From assembly GCA_035464655.1 (NCBI GenBank), contig DATHRZ010000009.1, positions 1,769 to 65,768 on the forward strand: a DNA stretch of 64,000 nucleotides. Direction: 5' to 3'. This stretch comes from Gemmatimonadota bacterium. GTDB taxonomy: Bacteria; Gemmatimonadota; Gemmatimonadetes; Palauibacterales; Palauibacteraceae. Positions 8,275-59,523 of this stretch are shown in pieces; position 1 is the stretch's first letter, and every line of letters begins with the position of its first letter. The notes under the pieces are model-generated. The model was not told where the DNA came from. It saw only the letters and a program-made list of their open reading frames with translations, and did no database searches. A program made the translations under genes and the position numbers.

Positions 8275-10596
8275 TTGGCCGTACAGACGAGGGTATTCGA
8301 AGTCGAAGGAATGCACTGCGCCGGCTGCAGCAGCGCCGTGGAGCGAAGCCTGAACGAGCTCGAGGGTGTCGAGGCCTCGGTGAGCCTGCCCGCCGAATCC
8401 GCCACCGTGAGCTTCGACCCGGAGCACGTGCTGTTCGCCGATCTCGCCGACGCGGTACTGGCGGCCGGCTATCGGCTCCGGTCTCACACGACCGACGACG
8501 TCGGGCCCGCCGAGCGCGAGCGCGACCAGGCGGAACGCCGGGAGGCGCGCCTCGAGCGGGCGAAGTGGCGGATGATCGTGTCCTGGGCGCTCGCCGCGCC
8601 GATCGCCGTCTGGATGCTGCCGGAGATGCTGTTCCACCTGCTGTGGCCGAGCCCGCTGGCGTTCGATCTCGGCATCCTGCTGCTGTCGATTCCCGTCCTG
8701 GCGGGCCCCGGACGGGAAACGATGGTCGGCGGCCTGACCGCACTGCAGAGGTTCCGACCGAACATGGACTCGCTGATCGCACTCGGCAGCGGCGCGGCCG
8801 TGGTGACCGGGTTCGTGGCGGTGGGCCACCGCTTCGGAATCGCGCCGCCGATCATGAGCTACGCCGGAGTGGGCGCGATGATCATGGCTATTCACCTGAC
8901 GGGCCGGTACATCGAGGCCCGCGCCCGGGGCCGCTCGTCGGCCGCGATCAGCCGGCTGCTTTCCCTCGAGGCCCGCACGGCGCACGTCGAGCGGGACGGT
9001 GTCGAGGTGGAGGTCCCCACGCGCGAGGTGAAAGTCGGCGACGTGATGGTCGTCCGGCCGGGCGAACGGATCCCCACCGACGGTCTGGTGATCGACGGCC
9101 GGAGCGCGGTGGACGAGGCCCTCGCGACGGGAGAGTCGATCCCGGTCGACCGCGGCCCCGGCGACCTCGTCATCGGCGCTACCGTCAACGTCCAGGGCGT
9201 CCTGCGGGTCCGCGCCACCGAGGTGGGCGAGAACACTTTCCTGGCCGGCGTCGTACGGATGGTGCAGCAGGCGCAGGGCAGCAAGGTGCCGATCCAGGAG
9301 TTCGCCGACCGGGTGACGGCGGTGTTCGTGCCCGTCGTGCTCGCGATCGCCTCCGCCACGCTGCTGGTGTGGCTCCTGGCGCCGGCGCCGCTGCGCGATA
9401 TCGCGGCATGGGCGGGTCAGTTCCTTCCGTGGATGCAGCCGAGCCTCGAACCTGTGTCGCTCGCCGTCTACGCGGCGCTCGCCGTGCTGGTGATCGCCTG
9501 CCCGTGCGCGCTCGGCCTCGCCACCCCCACCGCCCTCATGGTGGGAACGGGGCTCGGCGCCGAAAACGGGATCCTCGTGCGCGACGGCAAGGCCATCCAG
9601 GTGCTCGACGGAGCCGACGTCGTGGTGTTCGACAAGACCGGCACGATCACGCAGGGCCGCCCGACGGTCACCGACGTGGTGCCGGGGCAGGGCCACGACG
9701 AGACGCAGTTGCTCGAGCTCGCCGCCTCGCTCGAGCGCCACTCCGAACATCCGCTCGGGCGCGCGATCCTCGCCGCGGCCGATCGCCGCGGGATCACGGG
9801 GCGGCGCGTGCGAGACTTCGGCGCGAAGACCGGCTTCGGCGTCGTCGGTACCCTCGACGGGCAGCCCGCGCTCGCCGGCCGGCTCGGGATGCTCGAGGAC
9901 GCGGGCATCGACCCCGGCCCCCTGCGCGACGCGGGCGAACGGCTCGAGGCGGAAGGGCGCACGGTCGTGTACGTGGCGCGAGCGGGGCACCCCGTGGGCG
10001 TCCTCGCGATCGCCGACGAGCTGAAGGCCGACAGCGCCGGGGCCATCGGAGACCTGCATGCCCTCGGGCTCCGCACGGTGATGCTGACCGGCGACAACGA
10101 GCGCACCGCGCGCGCCGTGGCCGACGCCGTCGGGATCGACGAGGTGCGCGCCGGCCTGCTACCCGAAGACAAGGTGAAGGCGATACGCGATCTGCAGGCC
10201 GCGGGACACGTCGTCGCGATGGTGGGTGACGGGATCAACGACGCGCCGTCACTCAAGCAGGCGGACGTCGGGCTCGCGATCGGCACGGGAACGGACATCG
10301 CGATCGAGGCGGCCGACCTGACGCTGACGAGCGGCAGCCTGCGGGGCGTGGTGCGCGCCGTGAACCTGGCGCGCGGCACGTTCGGAAAGATCCGGCAGAA
10401 TCTGTTCTGGGCGTACTTCTACAACATCCTGGCGATTCCCGTCGCGGTGCTGGGGCTCCTGCACCCGCTACTCGCCGAGGCGGCGATGGCGGGCAGTTCG
10501 ATCACGGTGGTCGCCAACGCAAACCGCCTGCGGGACCTCGACCTCGACCCCCGCAACGACGGCGAGGCCAGGGCCGGCGCCCGGATTACGGAGTAG
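8275..10596 (+). CDS. copA: Cu(I)-translocating P1B-type ATPase
   Basis: HMA GMHCAGC, TGES, CPC in TM6, DKTGT, GDGIND, YN and MAGSS; GGAGG SD before TTG at 8275. Confidence 0.95.
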   Translation: MAVQTRVFEVEGMHCAGCSSAVERSLNELEGVEASVSLPAESATVSFDPEHVLFADLADAVLAAGYRLRSHTTDDVGPAERERDQAERREARLERAKWRMIVSWALAAPIAVWMLPEMLFHLLWPSPLAFDLGILLLSIPVLAGPGRETMVGGLTALQRFRPNMDSLIALGSGAAVVTGFVAVGHRFGIAPPIMSYAGVGAMIMAIHLTGRYIEARARGRSSAAISRLLSLEARTAHVERDGVEVEVPTREVKVGDVMVVRPGERIPTDGLVIDGRSAVDEALATGESIPVDRGPGDLVIGATVNVQGVLRVRATEVGENTFLAGVVRMVQQAQGSKVPIQEFADRVTAVFVPVVLAIASATLLVWLLAPAPLRDIAAWAGQFLPWMQPSLEPVSLAVYAALAVLVIACPCALGLATPTALMVGTGLGAENGILVRDGKAIQVLDGADVVVFDKTGTITQGRPTVTDVVPGQGHDETQLLELAASLERHSEHPLGRAILAAADRRGITGRRVRDFGAKTGFGVVGTLDGQPALAGRLGMLEDAGIDPGPLRDAGERLEAEGRTVVYVARAGHPVGVLAIADELKADSAGAIGDLHALGLRTVMLTGDNERTARAVADAVGIDEVRAGLLPEDKVKAIRDLQAAGHVVAMVGDGINDAPSLKQADVGLAIGTGTDIAIEAADLTLTSGSLRGVVRAVNLARGTFGKIRQNLFWAYFYNILAIPVAVLGLLHPLLAEAAMAGSSITVVANANRLRDLDLDPRNDGEARAGARITE

Positions 10597-11416
10597 CGCC
10601 CACCTGGCGAGCCTGTCCGTCGATCAGGCTGCTATGCTGCGCGTACTCCGGTCGACCCGCGGCACGCTCCGACGCCAGCGCCGCGCGGAAGCGCTCGCGG
10701 GCTTCGGCCAGCCCGGCCTCGTCCGCGAGCGCTTCGGCCACGTTGATCCGTAGGATCCAGGCAAGCAGGTGGTCGGGATTCCCGGCCAGGATGGCGTCGG
10801 CCGACTCGCGCGCACCGTCCGAATCTCCCGTCATCAACCGAAGGAGCCCGATGTGGAAGCGGGCGTCGGCATCGATGTCGCCGGGCGGAAGACCGCTGTA
10901 CGCCCGAAGACCCATGTCCGCGAAGAAGCGGGCCTGCCCCGAATCGCCGCTCGCTTCGGTGCGCATCGCGCGGTCGAATAATCGGTCGGCCGCATCGCGC
11001 CCCGACATGTTCGACAGATCGATGCGCGAGGGATCCGACCCGGTGGCGCCCGGCCCGGCTCCGCCGCCCATGCCTTCCTGCCCGGGACTCGGGATGACGG
11101 CACCGGTCGGCGGCATCCCCTCGGCTCGCTCGCCGACTGATTCGCCGATCATCAGGCTGATCGCCACGGCGAAGGCGACGAGGGCGAGGCCGGACAGGAT
11201 CCACGGCAGGCGATCGCGCAGCGGTTTCGTCGGCGGCGCCGCCACCGGAGCGCCGCACTCGCTGCAGTAGAGCGCATCGGCATCCAGGCCCGTTCCGCAG
11301 GCGGGGCAGGTCGTGACCCGAGCACCCGGATCGGTCAGCGGCTGTCCGCAGCGCGCGCAGAAGTTGCCGTCCCCCGTTGCGCCGCACGCCGAACACACCC
11401 GTGCCTGGCCGCTCAT
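10586..11416 (-). CDS. Double zinc-ribbon membrane protein with helical TPR-like C-terminus
   Basis: CSAC..CARC and CPAC..CSEC, one TM helix, Gly/Pro linker and helical repeats; GTGA/ATGA-type coupling to apgM. Confidence 0.75.
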   Translation of the reverse strand: MSGQARVCSACGATGDGNFCARCGQPLTDPGARVTTCPACGTGLDADALYCSECGAPVAAPPTKPLRDRLPWILSGLALVAFAVAISLMIGESVGERAEGMPPTGAVIPSPGQEGMGGGAGPGATGSDPSRIDLSNMSGRDAADRLFDRAMRTEASGDSGQARFFADMGLRAYSGLPPGDIDADARFHIGLLRLMTGDSDGARESADAILAGNPDHLLAWILRINVAEALADEAGLAEARERFRAALASERAAGRPEYAQHSSLIDGQARQVGATP

Positions 11417-49514: not shown

Positions 49515-49609
49515 GCGAGGCAATCTCGCTCGACGTGACACGAGGCGCACGTCTCGAGATTGAAGCGCGCCGCGGCCCCGTGGGGCAGCACCGTGATGTT
49601 GACGCGATC
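49385..49609 (-). other. Orphan 3-heme cytochrome module (74 codons) in the +1 frame directly after the stop of the 16-heme gene
   Basis: HGAAARFNLETCASCHVERDCLACH..PHGPDFD..CTACH; 30/57 identical without gaps to the C-terminus of the upstream gene; no signal peptide or SD. Confidence 0.8.
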
Positions 49610-51089
49610 AGGGGAGGATCTGCCTTGCCGCATGGCAGACGGCGCACGACTGGAGGCTGGCGTTCGACACGCGGTCCGGATCGAAGTCCGGACCGTGGGG
49701 ACTGATGCGAAGTCCCGACTTGGCGGAATGGCAACGCAGGCAGGATGTCTGCTGATGGCAGGACGAACAGGCCTCGAGACCCTGGCGCGCCGCCCGCCCG
49801 TGCTCGAACAACCAATCGGGCTGGGCATCGTGGAAGGCACCACCCGCGCCGTCGGCGACGCCGACCGTCACCCCGACGCCCTGATGACAGCTTCGACAGA
49901 ACGCCTCGGTCGAATGACAGTCAGTGCAGCTGGTCTGCACCGCGAACGCCTCCGCTCCGTGCCGCTGCAGGAAGTTCTCCGGATGATACCCGGACGTCGG
50001 CGAATTCATCGGTACCGCTGCGTCTCCCCGCGCGGACCGAGTCGGAACCGCGTCGTGACACGCTGCACATTCCCGTTCCACGTGGCACGAAGTGCAGTTC
50101 GGAAGATTGGCCGCCGCCGCAGCGGCATGCTGCGACCCGAAGTCCGGGATGTGGCCGGGCGCTCGCGTCCGCGCGACAGTGACGCCCGCGAGGCCCACCT
50201 CGGAGGGATCCGGCAGCGCGGCGATCTCGGGTATGCGGGCCTCTCCGTGGCACGTGCGGCAGCTCGGCTCGGCATGGCACGACGCGCACGATAGCGAACC
50301 CCCGACCACGCGCTTCGCGTGACTGAACTCCCAGCCGTCCTCCCGGTGGCTCTCGGGCTCCGGCCACTCTCCGGCCCGTCCCGCGAGCAGCTCTGCGACG
50401 CGCCGATCCGACCCAAGGGAACGGATCTCGTCGAGCTCGGCGGCATTCAGGTGGCAGCGGGCACAGCTCTCCTCGGCGTGACAGACCGCGCAACTCCCCA
50501 GCTCTGCTTCCGCCGCCTCCCCGTGCGACAGGATGAACGATTCGGCCGCGTGTGTAGGAGGTTCCGGAAATGCCGCGATACGCGAGACGGACAACTCCGG
50601 AACTTCGACCAGGATGGCGTGGCACTCTGCGCAGACGGCTTCGTCGGCCAGATGCTCCGGAGCCTCGTGTGCGTGACAGCTCACGCAGATCTCGGGTGCG
50701 GCCCGCGTGATCGCCATACTTGGCAGATCCGGCTGCAGCGGGCCGTGGCACCCGGCACAACGCAACTCTTCGTCGCCCGCGGCATGCACCGCCTCGACGT
50801 GCCGCACGTGTACGAACTCGAGGTTCGATGCGGTACGCGTCGGGGCCGCCCACGTCACGGTGTTCTCACGCTCCCCGTCGTGGCAGCGGATACAGTCGCG
50901 CGGTTCGACGGAGAAGTACCGATCTTCGTCGCCCTCCGGGATACCGGCATGGCAGCCGAGGCAGGTGGGGAACAGCCCGGCGTGCGCCTCGTGGGGAAAG
51001 CCGTCGGAATGGACCATCGAGACGACCACGCCGCCGGTCAATCCGATCGCGACCGATGTCAGCAGTGCCAGCACAATTCGCCGGATCAT
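49608..51089 (-). CDS. Multiheme c-type cytochrome, 16 CXXCH
   Basis: N-terminal signal/TM; 16 CXXCH counted; repeating H-x(8-9)-H..CXXCH-x4-5-CXXCH units; ATGA overlap with the porin gene. Confidence 0.92.
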   Translation of the reverse strand: MIRRIVLALLTSVAIGLTGGVVVSMVHSDGFPHEAHAGLFPTCLGCHAGIPEGDEDRYFSVEPRDCIRCHDGERENTVTWAAPTRTASNLEFVHVRHVEAVHAAGDEELRCAGCHGPLQPDLPSMAITRAAPEICVSCHAHEAPEHLADEAVCAECHAILVEVPELSVSRIAAFPEPPTHAAESFILSHGEAAEAELGSCAVCHAEESCARCHLNAAELDEIRSLGSDRRVAELLAGRAGEWPEPESHREDGWEFSHAKRVVGGSLSCASCHAEPSCRTCHGEARIPEIAALPDPSEVGLAGVTVARTRAPGHIPDFGSQHAAAAAANLPNCTSCHVERECAACHDAVPTRSARGDAAVPMNSPTSGYHPENFLQRHGAEAFAVQTSCTDCHSTEAFCRSCHQGVGVTVGVADGAGGAFHDAQPDWLFEHGRAARQGLEACSSCHQQTSCLRCHSAKSGLRISPHGPDFDPDRVSNASLQSCAVCHAARQILP

Positions 51090-52546
51090 CGCTGCCCCCC
51101 GGTGTCCGTTCCGAAGCTGTAGGAGAGCGAGCCGTATACGCGAACTTGTGTCCAGTCACCGTCCACCGGGCGCTCCTTAGCTTCGATCCAGTATACGGCG
51201 CCGCCGGCGTTCAACGACAACTCGCCAAGTCCGATTGCGCCGTCGACACCCACGCCCGACACGATCTGCTCGTTGAGCCGGAACTCGCCGAACGCCTGGG
51301 TGACCGTTCCGCGGAATGACAGATGTGTATGGTCGTCGAAGAAGCGGCCGAGACGAACATCACCACCGGAACGCGCGGCCCCGAAGCCTCGCTCACTATG
51401 GTACCCTCCCGAAGCAAACCACGGCCCGCCCCGCCAGTCGGCATTAGCGAGTATCCGCCAGCCGTCGTCCCGGAGGCCGGATTCGGCCGGCCCGGCACTC
51501 GTCTCCTCGTAGCTTCGGCGCGCGCCACCGGCCCGCAGCTGGAGACCGAGCGAAGGCGCGGACCAGGCCAGTGACAGGCGGCCCTCGTTGAAACCGACCG
51601 GGTTGAACGCGCCCCATATCGTCCAGAGCTCGAAGAACGGGGTATAGTGGCGCGCCTCGGCCGTGGCCTCGAGACGCGACACGACGGGCGTGTTGACGCG
51701 GAGGCGCAGATCGTTGAACTGCTCGTAGCTGAAGTCGTACTCGCCCGACGCTTCGACGACGGCCGGACCGAGGAACGCCCTGGCGTCGAGCGCAAGGCGC
51801 TCGGTGTACAGCGCGAGTCGATCGGTCCGGATCTCGCGCTGGTAACTGACGCGACCCGAGGCGATGTCGCCGATCCGGGCACCCGCTTCCGCCCCGAGAA
51901 TGAACCCCCGGTCGTCGGGCGCGAGGGGATCCGAGCGGGCCAGCAGGTCGCCCGAACGCGGGAAATTTAATCCGCGGGCGAGTGCCCATCCTCCGTACAC
52001 TTCCACCCAGAGCGGGTCCCATTTTCGCCACAGGAAGGCGCCGCCGTCGAAGTTGTAGTAGCCCAGCCCGTCGCGGCGGACCAGGCGACCGGCCCGGGCC
52101 CGGAACAGTGATCGGTCGTAGTCGAGGTAGGCGCTGACCGCCTCGAATTTCTCCGATGACAGCGGCCAGAAGTCGTCGGTCCCGTAGCGTCCTCGCACAT
52201 GTACGCGGGCGGAGAGCCCCTGGATCCCGCTCCAACCCGTGACTCGCGCCTCCTGCGTAGTGACGCCGACGGACTCGACCTCGCCGGCGCCGAACCAGCG
52301 ACAGAAATCGCCCTGCAGACAGGTGACGACGGTCCCGTCCGGGAGGCGGCGGCGGAGCGATGTCCCTTCCACCTCTTCCACCGGCAGGCTGTCCCTGACC
52401 AGAGGTCGGACCTCCAGATAGCTCCCTCCGACCGTGACTTCCGCGCGGTATCCCTGCCCCGCGACAGGCTCGGCCGTCACCAGCGCAAACGAGATCGAGC
52501 CCGCGGCGAGCACGATGCCGCGGCCCCACGAAGGCATCCCCGTCAT
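51086..52546 (-). CDS. Putative outer-membrane beta-barrel (porin of a porin-cytochrome complex)
   Basis: Signal peptide; about 20 amphipathic aromatic-ended strands (e.g. SAYLDYD, WVEVYGGW, GRLSLAW, VRVYGSLSYSF); flanked by multiheme genes. Confidence 0.75.
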   Translation of the reverse strand: MTGMPSWGRGIVLAAGSISFALVTAEPVAGQGYRAEVTVGGSYLEVRPLVRDSLPVEEVEGTSLRRRLPDGTVVTCLQGDFCRWFGAGEVESVGVTTQEARVTGWSGIQGLSARVHVRGRYGTDDFWPLSSEKFEAVSAYLDYDRSLFRARAGRLVRRDGLGYYNFDGGAFLWRKWDPLWVEVYGGWALARGLNFPRSGDLLARSDPLAPDDRGFILGAEAGARIGDIASGRVSYQREIRTDRLALYTERLALDARAFLGPAVVEASGEYDFSYEQFNDLRLRVNTPVVSRLEATAEARHYTPFFELWTIWGAFNPVGFNEGRLSLAWSAPSLGLQLRAGGARRSYEETSAGPAESGLRDDGWRILANADWRGGPWFASGGYHSERGFGAARSGGDVRLGRFFDDHTHLSFRGTVTQAFGEFRLNEQIVSGVGVDGAIGLGELSLNAGGAVYWIEAKERPVDGDWTQVRVYGSLSYSFGTDTGGQR

Positions 52547-53229
52547 GGCCGTAGCACCTCCGGGCTATTCAGCAGATGGCACTCGATACACGCTCCCGGT
52601 TGTTCGTGATCGCGCTGGCCGACGTGGCAGGAGACGCAGAAGTTCCGTTCATCCAGCATCGACGCGTAGTCCACGCCCTCGGCGACGTGGCACCCGGCCG
52701 TGCCGCAGCCGGCCAGGTCCACGTGCACGTCCTCCGCGTGGACGCCGATCGGTGGCTCCGAGTGGCAGGCCAGGCAGTCGCTCCCCGCCTTGTGGTGGTC
52801 GGTGTGACAGCTGGAGCACTGCGCCTGTGCCTTCAGAACCGCGTCGCCGGTGTGACACGAGGAGCACGAGACGCCTCCATGGATACCGTGATCGAACGTC
52901 AGCGAGCGATTACGCTCCACGTTGGACGGAAGTTGAAATGTCACGAGCCGCCGCAACGGTTCGGGAGCGATCTCTTCAGCCGCGTGACAGCGCTGACACT
53001 GTCCGTATCCGACATTCACGTGGTGGCAATCGGCGCACCACGTCCGATTCGACACCGTCGTCGCGCTACCGGTACTATGGCAGTCAGCACACTGATAGGC
53101 TGCGTGGACCTCATGCTGGAAGCGGGACAAGTCGGAGATTTCCTGCGCACGAGAAGCCGACGGCAGGACGAGTGCCACCAGCACTGCCGCTGAGCAACGT
53201 GTGACCACGAGCCGCCCGGGCGTGGTCAT
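52543..53229 (-). CDS. Periplasmic nonaheme cytochrome c (8 CXXCH + 1 CX4CH)
   Basis: ATG 53229 overlaps the cytb stop; signal peptide ending ASRA-Q; motifs counted. Confidence 0.9.
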
Positions 53230-54344
53230 GGTCCGCCTGCCGTCACATCGGGTACGGCTTCCGTATAGCCGAGATAGGTCATCACGAGGATGAAGATGAT
53301 CATGGCCCACCACACGTACTGCAGGTAATCGAGGGCGGCGTGCGCCTTCTCTCCTTCGCGCCGACGGTCGATGAACGGCACGAAGACGAGCACGACGGCC
53401 GCCAGGCCGAACCCGAGGATTCCCACGATCTCGCCCTCGATGCCGAGAATGTGCGCCGGCAAGTACTTCAACGTCTGGAACATGAACATGAAGTACCACT
53501 CCGGCTTGATTCCCGCGGGCGCCGACGCGAAGGGGTCCGCTTTCTCTCCCAACTCGGCCGGCAAATACGCCGCCAGCGCAGCGACGATCGCCAGTGCCGC
53601 CAACCAGCCCACGAGATCGCGGAGCAAGAAATGCGGCATGAAGGGTAGCGAGCGTCCAGTCCGTCCGCTCCGCTCGACGCTGGGGGGCGTGCTCATTCCG
53701 TGCTTCTGAACCAGGTAGACGTGGAGAGCGAGGAGCCCGACGATCAGCGTCGGCAGCACGGCGGCGTGGAAGGCGTAGAACCTGGTAAGCGTGGCACCAC
53801 TCACGTCGTCACCACCACGCAGGAGCCGCAGCATGCCTTCGCCGACCACCGGCACGACCCCGACGATCTGCGTACCGACACGCGTCGCAAAGTACGCTAG
53901 CTGATTCCACGGGAGAAGATAGCCGGTGAAGCCGAACCCCAGCGATATGACCAGTAGACCCGCCCCGGTGAGCCACGTGAGCTCGCGTGGGGGACGGTAC
54001 GCGCGCAGCAACAGAACGCTGAACATGTGCAGGAACAGCGTGGCGATCATCAGGTTTGCCGCCCAGTGGTGGATCGACCGGATCAGCCAGCCGAACTTCA
54101 CTTCGGTCATGATGAAGCGGATCGACTCGTACGCTTCGGATGCACTTGGACGGTAGTAGAACAGGAGCAGAATGCCGGTACCGACCTGGACGATGAACAG
54201 GAAGAGCGTCATCCCGCCCAGGTAGTACCAGATCGTGTGCTTGTGGACCGGAACTTCCTTCTTACGCGCGAGGCGCTCGAAGCCGGCCAGGCCGAGCCGG
54301 CTGTCGAACCACTCCCAGAGACGACCGCGCTCGCCGAAAGCCAT
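53226..54344 (-). CDS. Cytochrome b subunit of a Rieske/cytb (bc-type) complex
   Basis: [39 protein letters not shown] and the Qo motif PEWYF. Confidence 0.95.
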
Positions 54345-54823
54345 CAGCTTTCCTTGCTGACGATGATCTTGTCACCTTGCTCGACGACGGAGTACCTGGT
54401 CAGCGGTCTCGGGGGCGGCCCCTCGATGTTCGTCCCATTCAGATCGTAATGACCGTTGTGACACGCACACCAGATATGGCTGAGGTCATCGCGATATTGG
54501 ACGATGCAGTCCAGGTGGGTGCACATGCCGTCGAACGCCTTGAGCTCGCCCTTGGGAGTACGAACAATCATCCCGGGCCGGGAACCGAATCGGAAGATCT
54601 GGCCGCTGTTCGGGGGGATGTCGCGTGGACTGATGGGAAGCGTGACCTGCGATTCCGCGGACTCTTCCACCTCGGGCGGTACGAGGAAACGGATGATCGG
54701 GTACAGGACGGCGACACACAGGGCCCCGGCCCCCGTGCCAAGCATCCAGTTCAGAAACCGCCGGCGAATGAGGCCGGGCATGGCCGATCCGCTTTCGGGG
54801 GGACTTCCGTCGTGTTCGCTCAT
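54344..54823 (-). CDS. Rieske [2Fe-2S] protein
   Basis: RRRFL Tat anchor, CTHLDC and CACHNGHY boxes, and GPPPRPL. Confidence 0.95.
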
Positions 54824-56082
54824 GCCGATCCCAGTTGTCGAATCTTGGTCAAGAGCCCGAAGATGAGGACCAGAATCACGACGGTGGACGCCATCAGCCC
54901 GGTCCGGCGAGTCCGCAGCTCCTCGAACGCCGCCTCCCCGGCCCCGTATCCCGTCGCAGCGGCCTCCAAACCCACGGCAATGTGCGCCCGCACAGAGTCG
55001 ATCTTCGCCGTGTGCATGACGGCGCGCGCGCTCACGATCGCGGTCTGCACCCGCGTGAGCTCGAACAGCGCCTCGTCGACAGGCATCCCGGTGTGCTCCG
55101 CCTCGCGGAGGAGGGAGTCGGCTTGCGTGTGCACGGTATTGAGCGAGTTTACCATCGTCAGCATCTCCCGGGCGGCCTGTCCACCTTCGTCCGCGGCACT
55201 GTGACATCCCGAACCCGTACACGTGCTCCGTTCGTCCAGCCCGAGCAACTCGTCGTCGGCGGTCTCGATCGCATGGTTGCCGTGGCACGTTGCGCAGCCC
55301 GGGCGATCCAGCCCGTTGAACACGCTGTCGTGAGCGCTCATGGCGTAGTACTCGCCGATCTGGAAGTGGCACTCCGCACAGACTCTACCCACGGCGGAAT
55401 GCCCGGGCGGAACGGCGCCGTGGTTTCCGTGACAATCGTTGCAGACCGGCGAAGACAGATCACCCCGCTCGTCAAGCATGGCCCAGTGGATGCTCGAGCG
55501 GTATTCCTCGAGCTGGTTGGTGGGAATATCATACCCCGCCATGCGCTCCTCGTCGGCGTGACAGGCTCCGCACGTGTCGGGGACGTTGGCCGGGTGGACG
55601 GGCGACCCCGTCACACTGGCGGACTGGATACCGTGGGTCGAGTGGCAGTCGATGCACGTGGCCACATTGCGATCCCCTTGGACCAGCCGCTCGCCATGAC
55701 GCGACGTATAGTACGCCTCGACCTGGTCGATGCGGATGTCGGGATCGTAGGCGCGCATGAACTCCTGGTTCGAGTGGCAGCGACCGCACATTCCCGGCAC
55801 ACGTTGGCGAGCCGGGGCGGCTACCATGCCGGCATGAGCCGTCGACTCTGCATCCGACCGCGCGTCCCCACCGTGACAGCCCGTACACGTGAGCCCGGCC
55901 GCGAAGTGGACGTCGGATGCCCATCGCGCGGCGGGCTGGACGAGGTCGATCTCCTCGAGGGACAGGTGGCAGATCATGCACTGGTCCGTGACGCGCTGCT
56001 GCGACCGCGCCTCGCCCGGCCCGAGCGGGATGCTCGCGAGCGACGCGCAGATGATCCAGGTCGAAAGGCGGGCGACCCTCAT
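54820..56082 (-). CDS. Nonaheme cytochrome c (8 CXXCH + 1 CX4CH) with helical C-domain and C-terminal TM anchor
   Basis: Signal peptide; motifs counted; C-terminal LMASTVVILVLIFGLL; ATGA overlaps on both sides. Confidence 0.9.
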   Translation of the reverse strand: MRVARLSTWIICASLASIPLGPGEARSQQRVTDQCMICHLSLEEIDLVQPAARWASDVHFAAGLTCTGCHGGDARSDAESTAHAGMVAAPARQRVPGMCGRCHSNQEFMRAYDPDIRIDQVEAYYTSRHGERLVQGDRNVATCIDCHSTHGIQSASVTGSPVHPANVPDTCGACHADEERMAGYDIPTNQLEEYRSSIHWAMLDERGDLSSPVCNDCHGNHGAVPPGHSAVGRVCAECHFQIGEYYAMSAHDSVFNGLDRPGCATCHGNHAIETADDELLGLDERSTCTGSGCHSAADEGGQAAREMLTMVNSLNTVHTQADSLLREAEHTGMPVDEALFELTRVQTAIVSARAVMHTAKIDSVRAHIAVGLEAAATGYGAGEAAFEELRTRRTGLMASTVVILVLIFGLLTKIRQLGSA

Positions 56083-57959
56083 CCACTCGACCCCGTGGTC
56101 GGGACCAGGTGGCAGTTCATGCACGGCTGTCCAGGCTCATGTTCGATCATATCCTGATGGCACGTGGCGCAAAACTCCCGGGTCCGATCCATGCGAGAAT
56201 ACCGTGGCTCCGAGTGACAGCCGGAACCCGTGCATCCCCGGGTGTGAACGTCAGCCGTGTGAACGGGAGTCCGGTACTCGGCATGACAGGACGCGCAGGA
56301 CGCGGTCGCCTCGGGACGGTGGTGGTCCTCGTGGCAGGCCGCGCAGGAGGTCTGCACACTCTGCCGGATGCCACCCCCGTGGCAGTCGACGCAGCGCAGT
56401 TCGGTATGGGCATCATGATCGAACGGCAGGGCCCGCGGGCGGCGACCCTCCCCGACGCTCAACTCGAGCATCGTCGTGACCTGTCGCACCCGACCCAGTT
56501 CCACCTCGCCGTGGCAGCTTCCGCAGCCCTGCACTTGGGCGGTGTTCGTCGAATGGTGACAGGAGAAGCAGTCGCTCTGCGTTCTCACCGTGACCTCGCC
56601 GTGCTGACTGCGGTTCGAGTGGCACTCGGTGCACGCGACGGACGTGTGTTCCGCATGGCCGAAAGACACCTGCTGCGGCATCTCGAACGCGGCGGGTGCT
56701 GCGGTCGCATCCGCATGCAGGTACTGGAGCGCCGTCTGTGGAGCCCCTTCCGATGCGGCCAGCGTCACGACCGGATGCGGTGCCGGAGACGCACTTGTGG
56801 TCGCGGCGGCAACGGTCCGAGAAGCAGCGGCCGTCGCACCGGGAATGTCCGTGTGACAGGAGCCGCAGTCGTCACCGTCTCGTTCCCAGACGTGGGGCAG
56901 ATGGCACGACGTGCAGTCCTCGGTCACGTCCTGCGGAAGGCCGACGTGGAACGTGGTCAGTGTATCCGGGCGGGAGTGGCAGCCAGCGCCCGTGCACGAT
57001 TTGAGGGCCAGCTCGGGATTCTCCTGCTCATGCGGATTGTGACAGGCACCGCAACGGGCATCGTGCGGATCGGCGGCCGGGTCGTAGTCGGCCCACAGCG
57101 TCTCCATCTCGTGACACGAAGTGCACTGTCGAAGCCCCGGCGTGAGCGGTCCCGCCACCGAATCGATACTGGCGAGCATCGCCCGCTCAGCCGTGAACTC
57201 GTGGCAGGTGACGCAGTGCAGCCCCGTCTCCTCCGTCATGGCCCCGAGCACGATTTCCGTCGCGTCGGCCTCGTGGCACCCGACCTGACCGCACGTCTGA
57301 TCCGCGGGACGGAACTGGTGCACTTCCTGCCCGTGGCAGGTGACGCACTGGACGTCCGCCAGGGCGCTGGAGTCGGACTCGAGGTGCGCCACGTGTCCGG
57401 CGGTCGCGGCGATCTGACGCCAGTTGTCGGCCGGATCCGAAGCTATATGGCACTCCGCGCACACTTGCGTAGGAACGGGGGAATGCTCGCCGATCTCCTC
57501 GGGGCGGTCCTTGATCCACAGGTGGAGTTGGCGCGTGCTCGCAAATATCGACTGCTGGTGACAGTCGTGACAGCTCAGCTCCGAGTGGCCGCTTTCCGTA
57601 AAGCGCTGGTAGGCGGGCCCCATCACGTGGCAACCCGTGCAAAAGTCGTTGTCGTGCTGCATGTAGTCCCAGCTGACCACGCTGCCCGATACGACGAACA
57701 CAAGCACGATCGCGGCGCCTGCGGTCAGTCCGATCTGGAGCGGGCGTGTGCGTGAGCTCCACCAGGCGAGGAGCGCGTCGCGCTTCCGCACGGCAAGGAC
57801 GACAAGGGTGAGCCCAACGAGCGCCGCGAGGATGCCCCCGGCCATCTGCACACCCTGCGGCACGCTGAAGAACGCTCGCAGGAAGACCGCGAAGCCGCCG
57901 GGAAGGTCGGCTTCCGGGAGCTGCTGGGGCACGTCCTGCATCATGCCGTAACTCACCAT
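56079..57959 (-). CDS. 20-heme membrane cytochrome c with NapC/NirT-like N-terminal region (17 CXXCH + 3 CX4CH)
   Basis: Two N-terminal TM helices, then NDFCTGCHVM and SCHDCH (NapC-like spacing); Ala/Thr-rich linker before a C-terminal 9-heme module. Confidence 0.9.
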   Translation of the reverse strand: MVSYGMMQDVPQQLPEADLPGGFAVFLRAFFSVPQGVQMAGGILAALVGLTLVVLAVRKRDALLAWWSSRTRPLQIGLTAGAAIVLVFVVSGSVVSWDYMQHDNDFCTGCHVMGPAYQRFTESGHSELSCHDCHQQSIFASTRQLHLWIKDRPEEIGEHSPVPTQVCAECHIASDPADNWRQIAATAGHVAHLESDSSALADVQCVTCHGQEVHQFRPADQTCGQVGCHEADATEIVLGAMTEETGLHCVTCHEFTAERAMLASIDSVAGPLTPGLRQCTSCHEMETLWADYDPAADPHDARCGACHNPHEQENPELALKSCTGAGCHSRPDTLTTFHVGLPQDVTEDCTSCHLPHVWERDGDDCGSCHTDIPGATAAASRTVAAATTSASPAPHPVVTLAASEGAPQTALQYLHADATAAPAAFEMPQQVSFGHAEHTSVACTECHSNRSQHGEVTVRTQSDCFSCHHSTNTAQVQGCGSCHGEVELGRVRQVTTMLELSVGEGRRPRALPFDHDAHTELRCVDCHGGGIRQSVQTSCAACHEDHHRPEATASCASCHAEYRTPVHTADVHTRGCTGSGCHSEPRYSRMDRTREFCATCHQDMIEHEPGQPCMNCHLVPTTGSSG

Positions 57960-58033
57960 GGCGCCAGGACTCCCAACGTGCGAGTCGTAATTTTACGTGC
58001 GGGTGGTTCGCAACGGGTACAGGAGTATGGGGC

Positions 58034-58073
58034 GGACGGGGCCGTCCGGGAAAGTAGACTGACGGCCCCGTCC
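58034..58073. repeat. Perfect 13-bp inverted repeat GGACGGGGCCGTC-N14-GACGGCCCCGTCC between genes 1 and 2 of the cytochrome operon
   Basis: Read directly; no U-tract on the minus (coding) strand. Confidence 0.8.
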
Positions 58074-58092
58074 ATCGCTGGCGATACCCGAC

Positions 58093-59523
58093 CTAGCGCG
58101 CGATCTCGTTCAGCCGCCGCTCGATATCCGCCGGGAGAGTCCAGGAAGCGACACCGTACTCGTCCTGTACGGCCTGGATGCTTCCGAGCAACAGGGCCTC
58201 CGTGAGGAACGGGTTGTGGATCGCGGAACTCGTGATCTCGCCGAGACGCTGGTTGAACAGCGCACCCTCCGCGACGCTCAGAACGCCGTCCTCCGCGTCG
58301 AACTCCGTCTCGGGAACCTGCGCGAGCTGGGCGGCCAGCTCCGCCACCCGGTCCGCTATGCGCTCGGTCGCCGCGAGATACGCCGTGCGTGCCGAAGTCT
58401 CGTCACCGTGGCACTGGACGCAAGACTCGAACGACCGCTCGGTGACATCGCAGGTGCCGCCCGAGACCGGGACCCCCTGGGCGTCCAGGCACGGGATCGG
58501 CTCGAACAGATGACCCTTCGAGCTGAACACGAAGTCGCCGGTGAGCGGATCCGTGATCTCGCGCGCGAACACGTGACAGGTCGCGCACAGTTTCTCGTTC
58601 TGTGCGGAACCGTGTGTGCCACGGACGATATTCGTGTTGAAGTTCGGCGGGATCCAGCCGACGTCCTCCCCCAGCAGGAGCGGGCCCTGCGGCGAATGCG
58701 GTCCTCTCGAGTTGTCGATCTCCGGAACCGCGCGCTTGTGATGACACTTCATGCAGAGGTTCTCGCCGACGCTTGGCACGTCGATCGGGAAGCGGAGCTG
58801 GTGCTCCTGCGTAGCGTTGTGCGGATCGTGGCAGACCGCGCAGACGATCGGCAGATTCTCGGCCGAGCCCTTCTCGACGTAGTCGGCGTCGACGCCGAAA
58901 ACCTCGAGCACCCGCTTCGCCTCGTGGCATTCCTGGCACGCCTCACGTTCCCGGACCCCTTCGTTGCCTTCGAAGCCGTGCCGCGAATTCGCCCATTCGT
59001 CGACGAATCCGTGGTGCGAACCCTGGTGGCATTCCCCGCAACCGCTCGTCAGGTCCAGGCCGACCGCGATCGAGGCCAGGGGTTGCGACGCTTCGGGGTT
59101 CGACACATGACCGGCGCCTGGACCGTGGCAGCTCTCGCACTGAACGTCGTAGTAGCGCGTGTCCGCCGTGGCGACCCAGCCCGCCTCCCCCTCGGCCTCG
59201 TTTCCGTTTTCGCTGACCGTGTGACATCCCTCGCAGAAGGTCTGAGCGTGCGTGCTCGCCTGGAGCGTGTTCCACGCATCGGCGTGCGCGGTGAGCTCCC
59301 ACTCGCTCTGGGAGCCAATGTGACAGTTGCCACACACGGTGAAGTTCTCCGCCTGCGCGTCCTCCGTACCGTAGCCGAGGAAGCCCGACGCGCTCGCGGG
59401 CGGGTCATCGAACAGTGGGCGATCGACGAATATGGTCTCCGTGTCGGTGCATGCGGCGATCGCCATCAGCAGGACGGCACAGAGCGCTATTACAGCGGGG
59501 GTAACCGATCCAAATCTAATCAT
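58093..59523 (-). CDS. Nonaheme cytochrome c lipoprotein (c554/NrfA/OcwA-superfamily-like architecture)
   Basis: Lipobox AIAAC; 9 CXXCH; HADAW..L and CESCHGPG..H (c554-like); C-terminal helices with IHNP. Confidence 0.88.
   Translation of the reverse strand: MIRFGSVTPAVIALCAVLLMAIAACTDTETIFVDRPLFDDPPASASGFLGYGTEDAQAENFTVCGNCHIGSQSEWELTAHADAWNTLQASTHAQTFCEGCHTVSENGNEAEGEAGWVATADTRYYDVQCESCHGPGAGHVSNPEASQPLASIAVGLDLTSGCGECHQGSHHGFVDEWANSRHGFEGNEGVREREACQECHEAKRVLEVFGVDADYVEKGSAENLPIVCAVCHDPHNATQEHQLRFPIDVPSVGENLCMKCHHKRAVPEIDNSRGPHSPQGPLLLGEDVGWIPPNFNTNIVRGTHGSAQNEKLCATCHVFAREITDPLTGDFVFSSKGHLFEPIPCLDAQGVPVSGGTCDVTERSFESCVQCHGDETSARTAYLAATERIADRVAELAAQLAQVPETEFDAEDGVLSVAEGALFNQRLGEITSSAIHNPFLTEALLLGSIQAVQDEYGVASWTLPADIERRLNEIAR

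Follow-up and report, generated by a model that had tools for sequence, protein, structure and literature searches.

A nine-heme c7-type module, tethered and free, encoded beside an outer-membrane barrel in Gemmatimonadota

A 64,000-nt stretch of DNA from a Gemmatimonadota genome (contig DATHRZ010000009.1; the window) encodes on its minus strand two multiheme cytochromes that carry the same nine-heme module. One is the free cytochrome cyt228 (52543..53229; 228 aa, nine heme sites). The other, cyt626 (56079..57959; 626 aa), has 20 heme sites, 11 in its N-terminal part and nine in a tethered C-terminal module (56079..56669, residues ~431-626 plus the stop codon). The two modules are homologous, each consists of three c7-like triheme repeats, and across the phylum the module is encoded next to a gene for a large outer-membrane beta-barrel, usually as part of a 20-heme protein. 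We favour, with moderate confidence, a reading in which this nonaheme rod acts as the plug on the barrel side of a Gemmatimonadota porin-cytochrome conduit and is supplied with electrons either over a covalent link or by a Rieske/cytochrome b complex.

Homology and repeat structure of the nonaheme module

Over its whole length, cyt228 aligns with residues ~431-626 of cyt626 (BLASTP; 72/201 identities, 36%, E 3e-27), and the nine heme motifs of the two modules stand in the same order and all in register. An earlier note, written from the DNA letters, had pointed to this shared order and spacing; its coordinates and heme counts agree with ours, as does its placing of a CX4CH motif at the seventh site, which reads CGTAGCH in cyt228 and CTGSGCH in cyt626, where it is site 18. 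The similarity is not confined to the CXXCH residues, as it would be if the motifs were all that the proteins shared: identity outside identical C/H columns is 34/140 (24%), and the local alignment scores 309, against 197 +/- 22 (maximum 257) in 500 shuffles that left every C and H in place (z = 5.0). An alignment of 28 free with 16 fused orthologues has 47 columns that agree between the two clades and are conserved to at least 90%; these comprise 37 C/H columns together with F37, S52, R108, F112, D144, V168, G174, G179, R195, and E209. All nine motifs are conserved in both copies of the window lineage, as are ten non-motif His, a number that suffices for nine bis-His hemes, and the CX4CH site hardly varies in either the free or the 20-heme family. 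The source genome (2.74 Mb, 132 contigs) contains exactly two copies of the module, cyt228 and the cyt626 C-terminus; the 16-heme cytochrome cyt493, considered as a further carrier, gave only short motif-level matches (BLASTP, E ~1e-3). An AlphaFold2 model of cyt228, built from a 32-row alignment and without hemes, was too poor for a fold search, with a mean predicted local distance difference test score (pLDDT) of 53 and a predicted template modeling score (pTM) of 0.39.

Within the module, the three thirds are mutually homologous (hhalign probabilities of 97.5%, with E 7.5e-12, 90%, and 92%), with E-values that are flattered by the shared CXXCH motifs. In Pfam, cyt228 matches PF02085 (Cytochrom_CIII) at 42.4 bits (cut-off 22.9) and PF14522 (Cytochrome_C7) at 33.9 bits (cut-off 24.8), and cyt626 matches both families above their gathering scores (PF14522, 52.8 bits; PF02085, 48.6 bits), the best stretches lying within its C-terminal module. 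The best PDB sequence match of the module profile is 3ov0 (1.5e-11), the Geobacter c7-domain polymer GSU1996; the nine-heme cytochrome c of Desulfovibrio is matched more weakly (1duw and 19hc, 4.9e-6 and 3.6e-5). Because its thirds are homologous, the Pfam gathering scores are passed, and GSU1996 is the best solved relative, the module is, as judged from these sequence comparisons, a three-unit c7-type heme wire made of tandem triheme repeats. It is also compact, with ~195 residues for nine hemes (~22 residues per heme), compared with ~29 per heme in cyt493. Membership in the MtrA/DmsE family was ruled out, there being no NCBIfam match and nine sites, one of them CX4CH, in place of ten CXXCH.

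A search of 1.84 billion representative proteins with the module profile returned 2393 matches at E<=1e-3 and 212 at E<=1e-30. Among the best 150, 66 have nine heme sites, 33 have ten, and 20 have twenty. The earlier note's idea of a modular nonaheme unit used twice was right, and generalises to proteins with 9, 10, 20, and 22 hemes. The module is C-terminal in all full-length matches examined except one giant repeat protein. Signal-like starts are frequent (at least 42/69 nine-heme and 34/40 ten-heme clusters), which argues that many of the nine- and ten-heme clusters are truly stand-alone proteins. All members of the nonaheme family that bear a source name come from Gemmatimonadota, and the relatives that bear names are Gemmatimonadota metagenome-assembled genomes (MAGs). 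A narrow peptide-pattern search of genome contigs found three loci, all in Gemmatimonadota, with a pattern that is uninformative on the distribution outside the phylum. The sources call the proteins nothing more specific than “hypothetical protein” or “cytochrome c3 family protein.”

Two further classes carry the module. The stand-alone 10-heme class (33 of the best 150 profile matches; ~270-350 aa) has one extra heme before the module, with examples at L021:8407-9460, L026 (~9460-10023, minus strand), and L031 (~10152-10793, minus strand); its gene precedes cyt434-Rieske-cytochrome b in G167 and G016 and lies between cyt501 and the barrel gene in G160. A paralogous 22-heme family (13 + 9 hemes, ~660-680 aa; L006:2941-4977, L027, L033, L034, L035, and L037) bears a divergent module and forms its own clade, with a Shimodaira-Hasegawa-like approximate likelihood ratio test (SH-aLRT) value of 99. 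Its L006 copy has an ordinary CXXCH at site 7, and its genes sit among cytochrome b-like and cyt434-like genes, with a barrel gene 2-5.5 kb away.

Linkage to a barrel gene and history of the two forms

Gene linkage was surveyed in 301 genomes drawn evenly from Gemmatimonadota, with three queries: the module, the 11-heme N-terminal part of cyt626, and the 486-aa barrel (51086..52546, minus strand). The module was found in 128/301 genomes, the 11-heme part in 97/301, and the barrel in 131/301, and module and barrel occur together in 127. Ninety-three of the 142 module copies lie in frame after the 11-heme part (median gap 178 nt), and in 87 of these a barrel gene lies downstream at a distance of no more than 400 nt; of the other six, four are on contigs without any barrel gene. 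Since 87/93 fused copies adjoin the barrel gene, the tethered module, and not the free one, is the usual barrel neighbour across the phylum, and at least 87 genomes have the tethered copy only, directly upstream of the barrel gene. Synteny by tblastn in 20 fetched regions recovered the core layout cyt501 - 20-heme - barrel - 16-heme in families f3, f4, f6, and f9. Only the window's own genome (G000) and G261, a member of the same family, have a fused copy that stands apart from the barrel gene, and hybrid layouts with both forms are limited to 2/128 module-bearing genomes of the sample. This survey, of the kind that the earlier note had called for, shows the unit in both settings, fused (93/142 copies) and free beside the porin.

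Clear free copies adjacent to a barrel gene are present in G000, G261, G160, G296, and G191, and four or five more are ambiguous at contig ends. In the clade of cyt228 the free gene always lies between cytochrome b and the barrel gene (the window, L003-L005, L006, L019, and L039). The order in G301 (L039) is cyt501 - cyt434-like - Rieske - cytochrome b - free module - barrel, without a 20-heme gene, and the 11-heme part had no match in the genomes of G301 or G302, a provisional result, as the completeness of both is not given. G296 and G191 have the layout cyt501 - free module - barrel. G296 and G301 each hold one module, in the free form. As both tethered-only and free-only genomes exist, each form suffices alone. 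G167 has a cyt501-barrel-16-heme operon without an adjacent module; its 10-heme module protein is encoded divergently, together with Rieske/cytochrome b. The cyt434-Rieske-cytochrome b cassette is also found apart from the conduit, even in another class without module and barrel. At the G301 locus (L039:1-4425) the conduit cluster lies directly downstream of genes for V/A-type ATPase subunits.

In trees of the module, cyt228 falls in an all-free clade (SH-like support 98 in the 209-row tree) and the cyt626 module in a 20-heme clade (support 96-99), and the free copies of family f3 nest within f3's own 20-heme clade (support 98). Approximately unbiased (AU) tests rejected monophyly both for the free forms as a whole (p 0.0097) and for the 20-heme forms as a whole (p 0.0004). 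They also rejected a recent in-lineage duplication, in which the window's free and tethered clades would be exclusive sisters (p 0.003). Mean identity between these two clades is 35%, vs 61-67% within them (tethered 0.67, free 0.61). With the reservation that the tree is unrooted and the groups are post hoc, fission or fusion occurred more than once, and free forms arose repeatedly, probably from fused ones. The earlier note had called cyt228 a copy of the C-terminal module of its neighbour. The direction holds loosely, in that free forms nest among fused ones; duplication of the neighbouring module does not. By the tests and identities above, the window's free and tethered modules are an old pair and not a recent duplicate; a tethered-type cluster and a Rieske/cytochrome b/free-module cluster most likely recombined and so united the two.

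Several loci in the survey have disrupted frames. The cluster in G270 (L033; G270:C9:842000-861999) looks decayed, with cyt501, barrel, and 16-heme genes that each match in two or three frames and an in-frame TGA in the barrel gene. In G271 (L038; G271:C8:132517-133582) the 20-heme gene switches frame within its N-terminal part, near residue 285, by either a frameshift or an assembly error. Well-matching modules contain a single in-frame TGA in G178 (G178:C37:33101-33697) and G046 (G046:C4:549189-549776), and G135 has an in-frame TAG; these stops could be sequencing errors, marks of pseudogenes, or recoded codons.

A putative conduit and its alternatives

The 486-aa protein is, on the evidence of its model (pLDDT 85.5, pTM 0.76, 24 long strands), an outer-membrane beta-barrel. 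Its best Foldseek matches are 24-strand FimD/PapC usher pores and general porins, with E down to 4e-9 and template modeling scores (TM-scores) only up to ~0.5. A wide barrel encoded beside multiheme cytochromes, the defining arrangement of porin-cytochrome conduits, is present in 87/93 fused and at least five free cases. One barrel homologue (P0291, 51% identity), on a 4.6-kb contig, is labelled by NCBI as a Tepidiformaceae (Chloroflexota) MAG; this sole label from outside Gemmatimonadota is probably a binning error. For the quinol-side part, four cyt626 orthologues (P0033, P0036, P0051, and P0052) have a precomputed PF03264 match, and NCBI assigns P0052 to the NapC/NirT family.

In the common form of the proposed system, an inner-membrane-anchored 20-heme protein would join a NapC/NirT-like 11-heme quinol-side part through a disordered linker to the C-terminal module, whose coding end abuts the barrel gene. 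The second form would employ a free periplasmic module, which has a signal peptide of its own and a gene placed between those of cytochrome b and the barrel, and which is presumably fed by a membrane-anchored 9-heme partner of the Rieske/cytochrome b complex. The window operon is a hybrid of the two, most likely providing two parallel connections from the quinol pool into one outer-membrane conduit; the free copy would be the barrel partner there, and the tethered copy would compete for barrels or dock onto the free copy. MtrA covers ~80 Angstrom with ten hemes, and MtrCAB ~185 Angstrom with 20; by analogy with these spans, a 20-heme protein on a flexible leash of 20-100 residues could plausibly extend from its inner-membrane anchor into a barrel of the outer membrane. 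A bolder version, which we put forward tentatively and with less confidence than the plug itself, is that in most system-bearing Gemmatimonadota a single polypeptide spans the envelope from a NapC/NirT-like head to a barrel-seated rod, the rod being an autonomous plug that was repeatedly cut loose and re-coupled to Rieske/cytochrome b. If so, quinol oxidation would be wired to the cell surface without a soluble periplasmic carrier.

Several points weigh against the module as barrel-side plug. Gene order would be explained equally well if the module bridged the periplasm to a 16-heme protein embedded in the barrel; that the module is seated in the barrel or on it, which way electrons flow, and which quinol-side entry serves which copy are what we infer. 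No NCBIfam family, including TIGR03508 of the MtrA/DmsE/PioA decahemes, matches cyt228 at E<=0.01. The N-terminal part of cyt626 stays below the cut-offs for PF03264 (21.6 bits vs 24.1) and TIGR03153 (42.9 bits vs 134.2), in both cases over residues ~78-137 only. Genome absences in a survey of MAGs are provisional, many deep forks of the unrooted module tree are weak, and the groups submitted to AU tests were chosen after inspection of the tree.

The occupant of the barrel is the point on which a serious rival turns. The 16-heme protein (or the lipoprotein cyt501) could fill the barrel, the nonaheme unit doing no more than span the periplasmic gap, and gene order cannot decide between the two occupants. 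The 16-heme gene is an equally constant barrel neighbour, always directly downstream; the gene after the porin encodes a conduit component in the Geobacter ombB-omaB-omcB order; and the module matches nothing in the MtrA/DmsE family. The nonaheme unit is nevertheless the slimmer rod, as its residues per heme indicate, and the inserted cytochrome is encoded immediately upstream of the barrel in MtrCAB, PioAB, and MtoAB. The barrel operon of G167, which has no adjacent module, in a genome with a divergently encoded 10-heme module protein, fits either model. We consider the bridge unlikely.

Two further rivals concern the tethered copy in the hybrid lineage. The earlier note had suggested that the tethered copy hands electrons to the porin-inserted free copy, and in a strict series, with module-module contact and both copies needed, this would explain why both are intact and conserved in the hybrid lineage and why only there is the tethered copy apart from the barrel gene, its barrel-adjacent place held by the free copy; the 61-aa flexible linker would give the reach. 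Such a hand-off could take place in the window operon; elsewhere nothing requires it. Its obligatory version is unsupported and seems improbable to us, as the at least 87 tethered-only barrel-adjacent cases and the free-only genomes G296 and G301 indicate that neither form depends on the other. The two modules are alike in being acidic, with net charges of about -2 to -22, which leaves no obvious electrostatic complementarity between the copies and rules out charge as a docking hint, and the Rieske/cytochrome b/cyt434 genes that lie between the copies would offer the free one a separate donor. Rarity of the hybrid layouts could instead mean that the tethered module of the window lineage is a roleless leftover, not yet lost after a Rieske/cytochrome b/free-module cassette arrived by recombination. 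We regard this as very improbable: the fused clade of the hybrid lineage (16 clusters, 64-82% identity) keeps all 20 heme sites, the conservation of its module is on a par with that of the free one (within-clade identity 0.67 vs 0.61), which argues for purifying selection and not decay, and real decay looks different, as the broken frames of G270 illustrate.

The cluster has partial counterparts in known systems. Like MtrCAB of Shewanella, PioAB, and MtoAB, the Gemmatimonadota cluster places a gene for a multiheme cytochrome immediately before that of a large outer-membrane barrel, and it also encodes a lipoprotein multiheme cytochrome; a slim rod of about ten hemes is the expected barrel partner, and inner-membrane entry would be by a quinol dehydrogenase of the NapC/NirT type, the role of CymA. 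It differs from MtrCAB in its c7-like triheme repeats without a TIGR03508 match, in a barrel of ~24 strands without a Pfam family (MtrB has 26 strands), in joining the quinol-side cytochrome and the barrel-side unit mostly in one polypeptide, and in the extra 16-heme protein that is always present. The Geobacter systems OmaB-OmbB-OmcB and ExtABCD with ImcH/CbcL also combine a periplasmic multiheme cytochrome, a barrel, and a lipoprotein multiheme cytochrome with several alternative inner-membrane quinol oxidoreductases and c3/c7-type cytochromes; Pfam and NCBIfam profile searches found no detectable orthology of barrel or cytochromes to these clusters. In Geobacter, inner-membrane and conduit components are separate proteins joined by soluble PpcA-type carriers, whereas the link in Gemmatimonadota would be covalent or run through a Rieske/cytochrome b complex.

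Among c7 and c3 relatives, GSU1996 (3ov0) shares with the module a linear heme wire of tandem triheme c7-like domains. It has four domains and 12 hemes and is a soluble periplasmic protein, not known to be barrel-linked or fused to a membrane anchor; the Gemmatimonadota module differs further in the CX4CH site of its repeat 3. The nine-heme cytochrome c of Desulfovibrio likewise has nine bis-His hemes and belongs to the c3 superfamily, with profile matches that are weak and of partial coverage. That protein (~290 aa) consists of two tetraheme c3-like domains and an isolated heme, not three triheme repeats, and works in a transmembrane Hmc-like complex, not a barrel cluster. Barrel and multiheme clusters with an inner-membrane b-type component have been defined bioinformatically as PCC3 and PCC4 in Fe(II) oxidisers, with a 5-helix diheme-b membrane protein and cytochromes of 4, 5, 10, or >20 hemes (He et al., 2017; PMC5566968), and a 2026 MAG study mentions, in general terms, petB/petC beside porin-cytochrome genes (PMC13264449). 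The passages of these two papers that were consulted describe no nonaheme module, NapC-like fusion, or Gemmatimonadota case.

Porin-cytochrome conduits, NapC/NirT-type entry points, and c7 polymers are thus already known, and since domain reuse is ordinary in multiheme cytochromes, the duplication alone is a modest result. The larger yield would be a phylum-wide, unannotated conduit in which one protein usually comprises both the quinol-side cytochrome and the barrel-side rod. Our literature search, outside which many subscription papers fell, found no description of the Gemmatimonadota family, the fusion, or the alternation of tethered and free forms; a prior description is possible. Nature provides three kinds of variant, with the tethered module alone, the free module alone, or the two together, a series that makes the question of whether electrons cross the periplasm by diffusing carriers or by fixed wires directly testable. 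The survey also marks ~40% of the sampled Gemmatimonadota genomes as candidates for mineral or electrode redox chemistry, in a phylum that is abundant in soil and sediment.

Gene layout of the window cluster

The conserved genes form a single cluster, all on the minus strand, at 49608-59523 of the window. The first, cyt501 (58093..59523), has nine heme sites and a lipobox-like IAAC. It is followed by cyt626, whose N-terminal part (56853..57959) contains two hydrophobic segments (residues 36-60 and 72-100) and, from residue 107 on, 11 heme sites, and is weakly NapC/NirT/NrfH-like. The Ala/Thr/Pro-rich linker (56670..56852; residues 370-430, low complexity) runs from heme site 11 to the module; it is 61 aa long in cyt626 and 8-104 aa (median 71) in 40 twenty-heme relatives, with a composition of 19% A, 14% P, and 11% G and a poorly conserved sequence. 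Next come cyt434 (54820..56082; 420 aa), with nine heme sites and a C-terminal hydrophobic membrane anchor, a putative partner of the Rieske/cytochrome b complex; the Rieske iron-sulfur protein (54344..54823; 159 aa); and a cytochrome b of the fused b6/subunit-IV type (53226..54344; 372 aa). The free module cyt228 begins with a hydrophobic signal-like segment (residues 4-26, ending ...SASRA/QE), a feature that, like the membrane tether and linker of cyt626, had been recognised in the earlier note. The barrel gene follows, and directly downstream of it, as always, lies cyt493 (49608..51089), with 16 heme sites and a signal-like N-terminus.

Four-nt ATGA overlaps join cyt626 to cyt434 and cyt434 to Rieske, and again cytochrome b to cyt228, cyt228 to the barrel, and the barrel to cyt493, so that the cyt228 start overlaps the cytochrome b stop and the cyt228 stop overlaps the barrel start, by 4 nt each; the Rieske/cytochrome b junction overlaps by 1 nt. 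The chain holds with the starts of cyt434 and Rieske set as in orthologues. The longest open reading frames of these two genes (54820-56124 and 54344-55372, respectively) are too long, and orthologues together with the ATGA overlaps place the start codons at ATG 56082 and ATG 54823. CX4CH sites of the C-x-x-x-G-C-H type occur at cyt626 residues 223, 322, and 576, at cyt434 residue 302, and at cyt228 residue 175.

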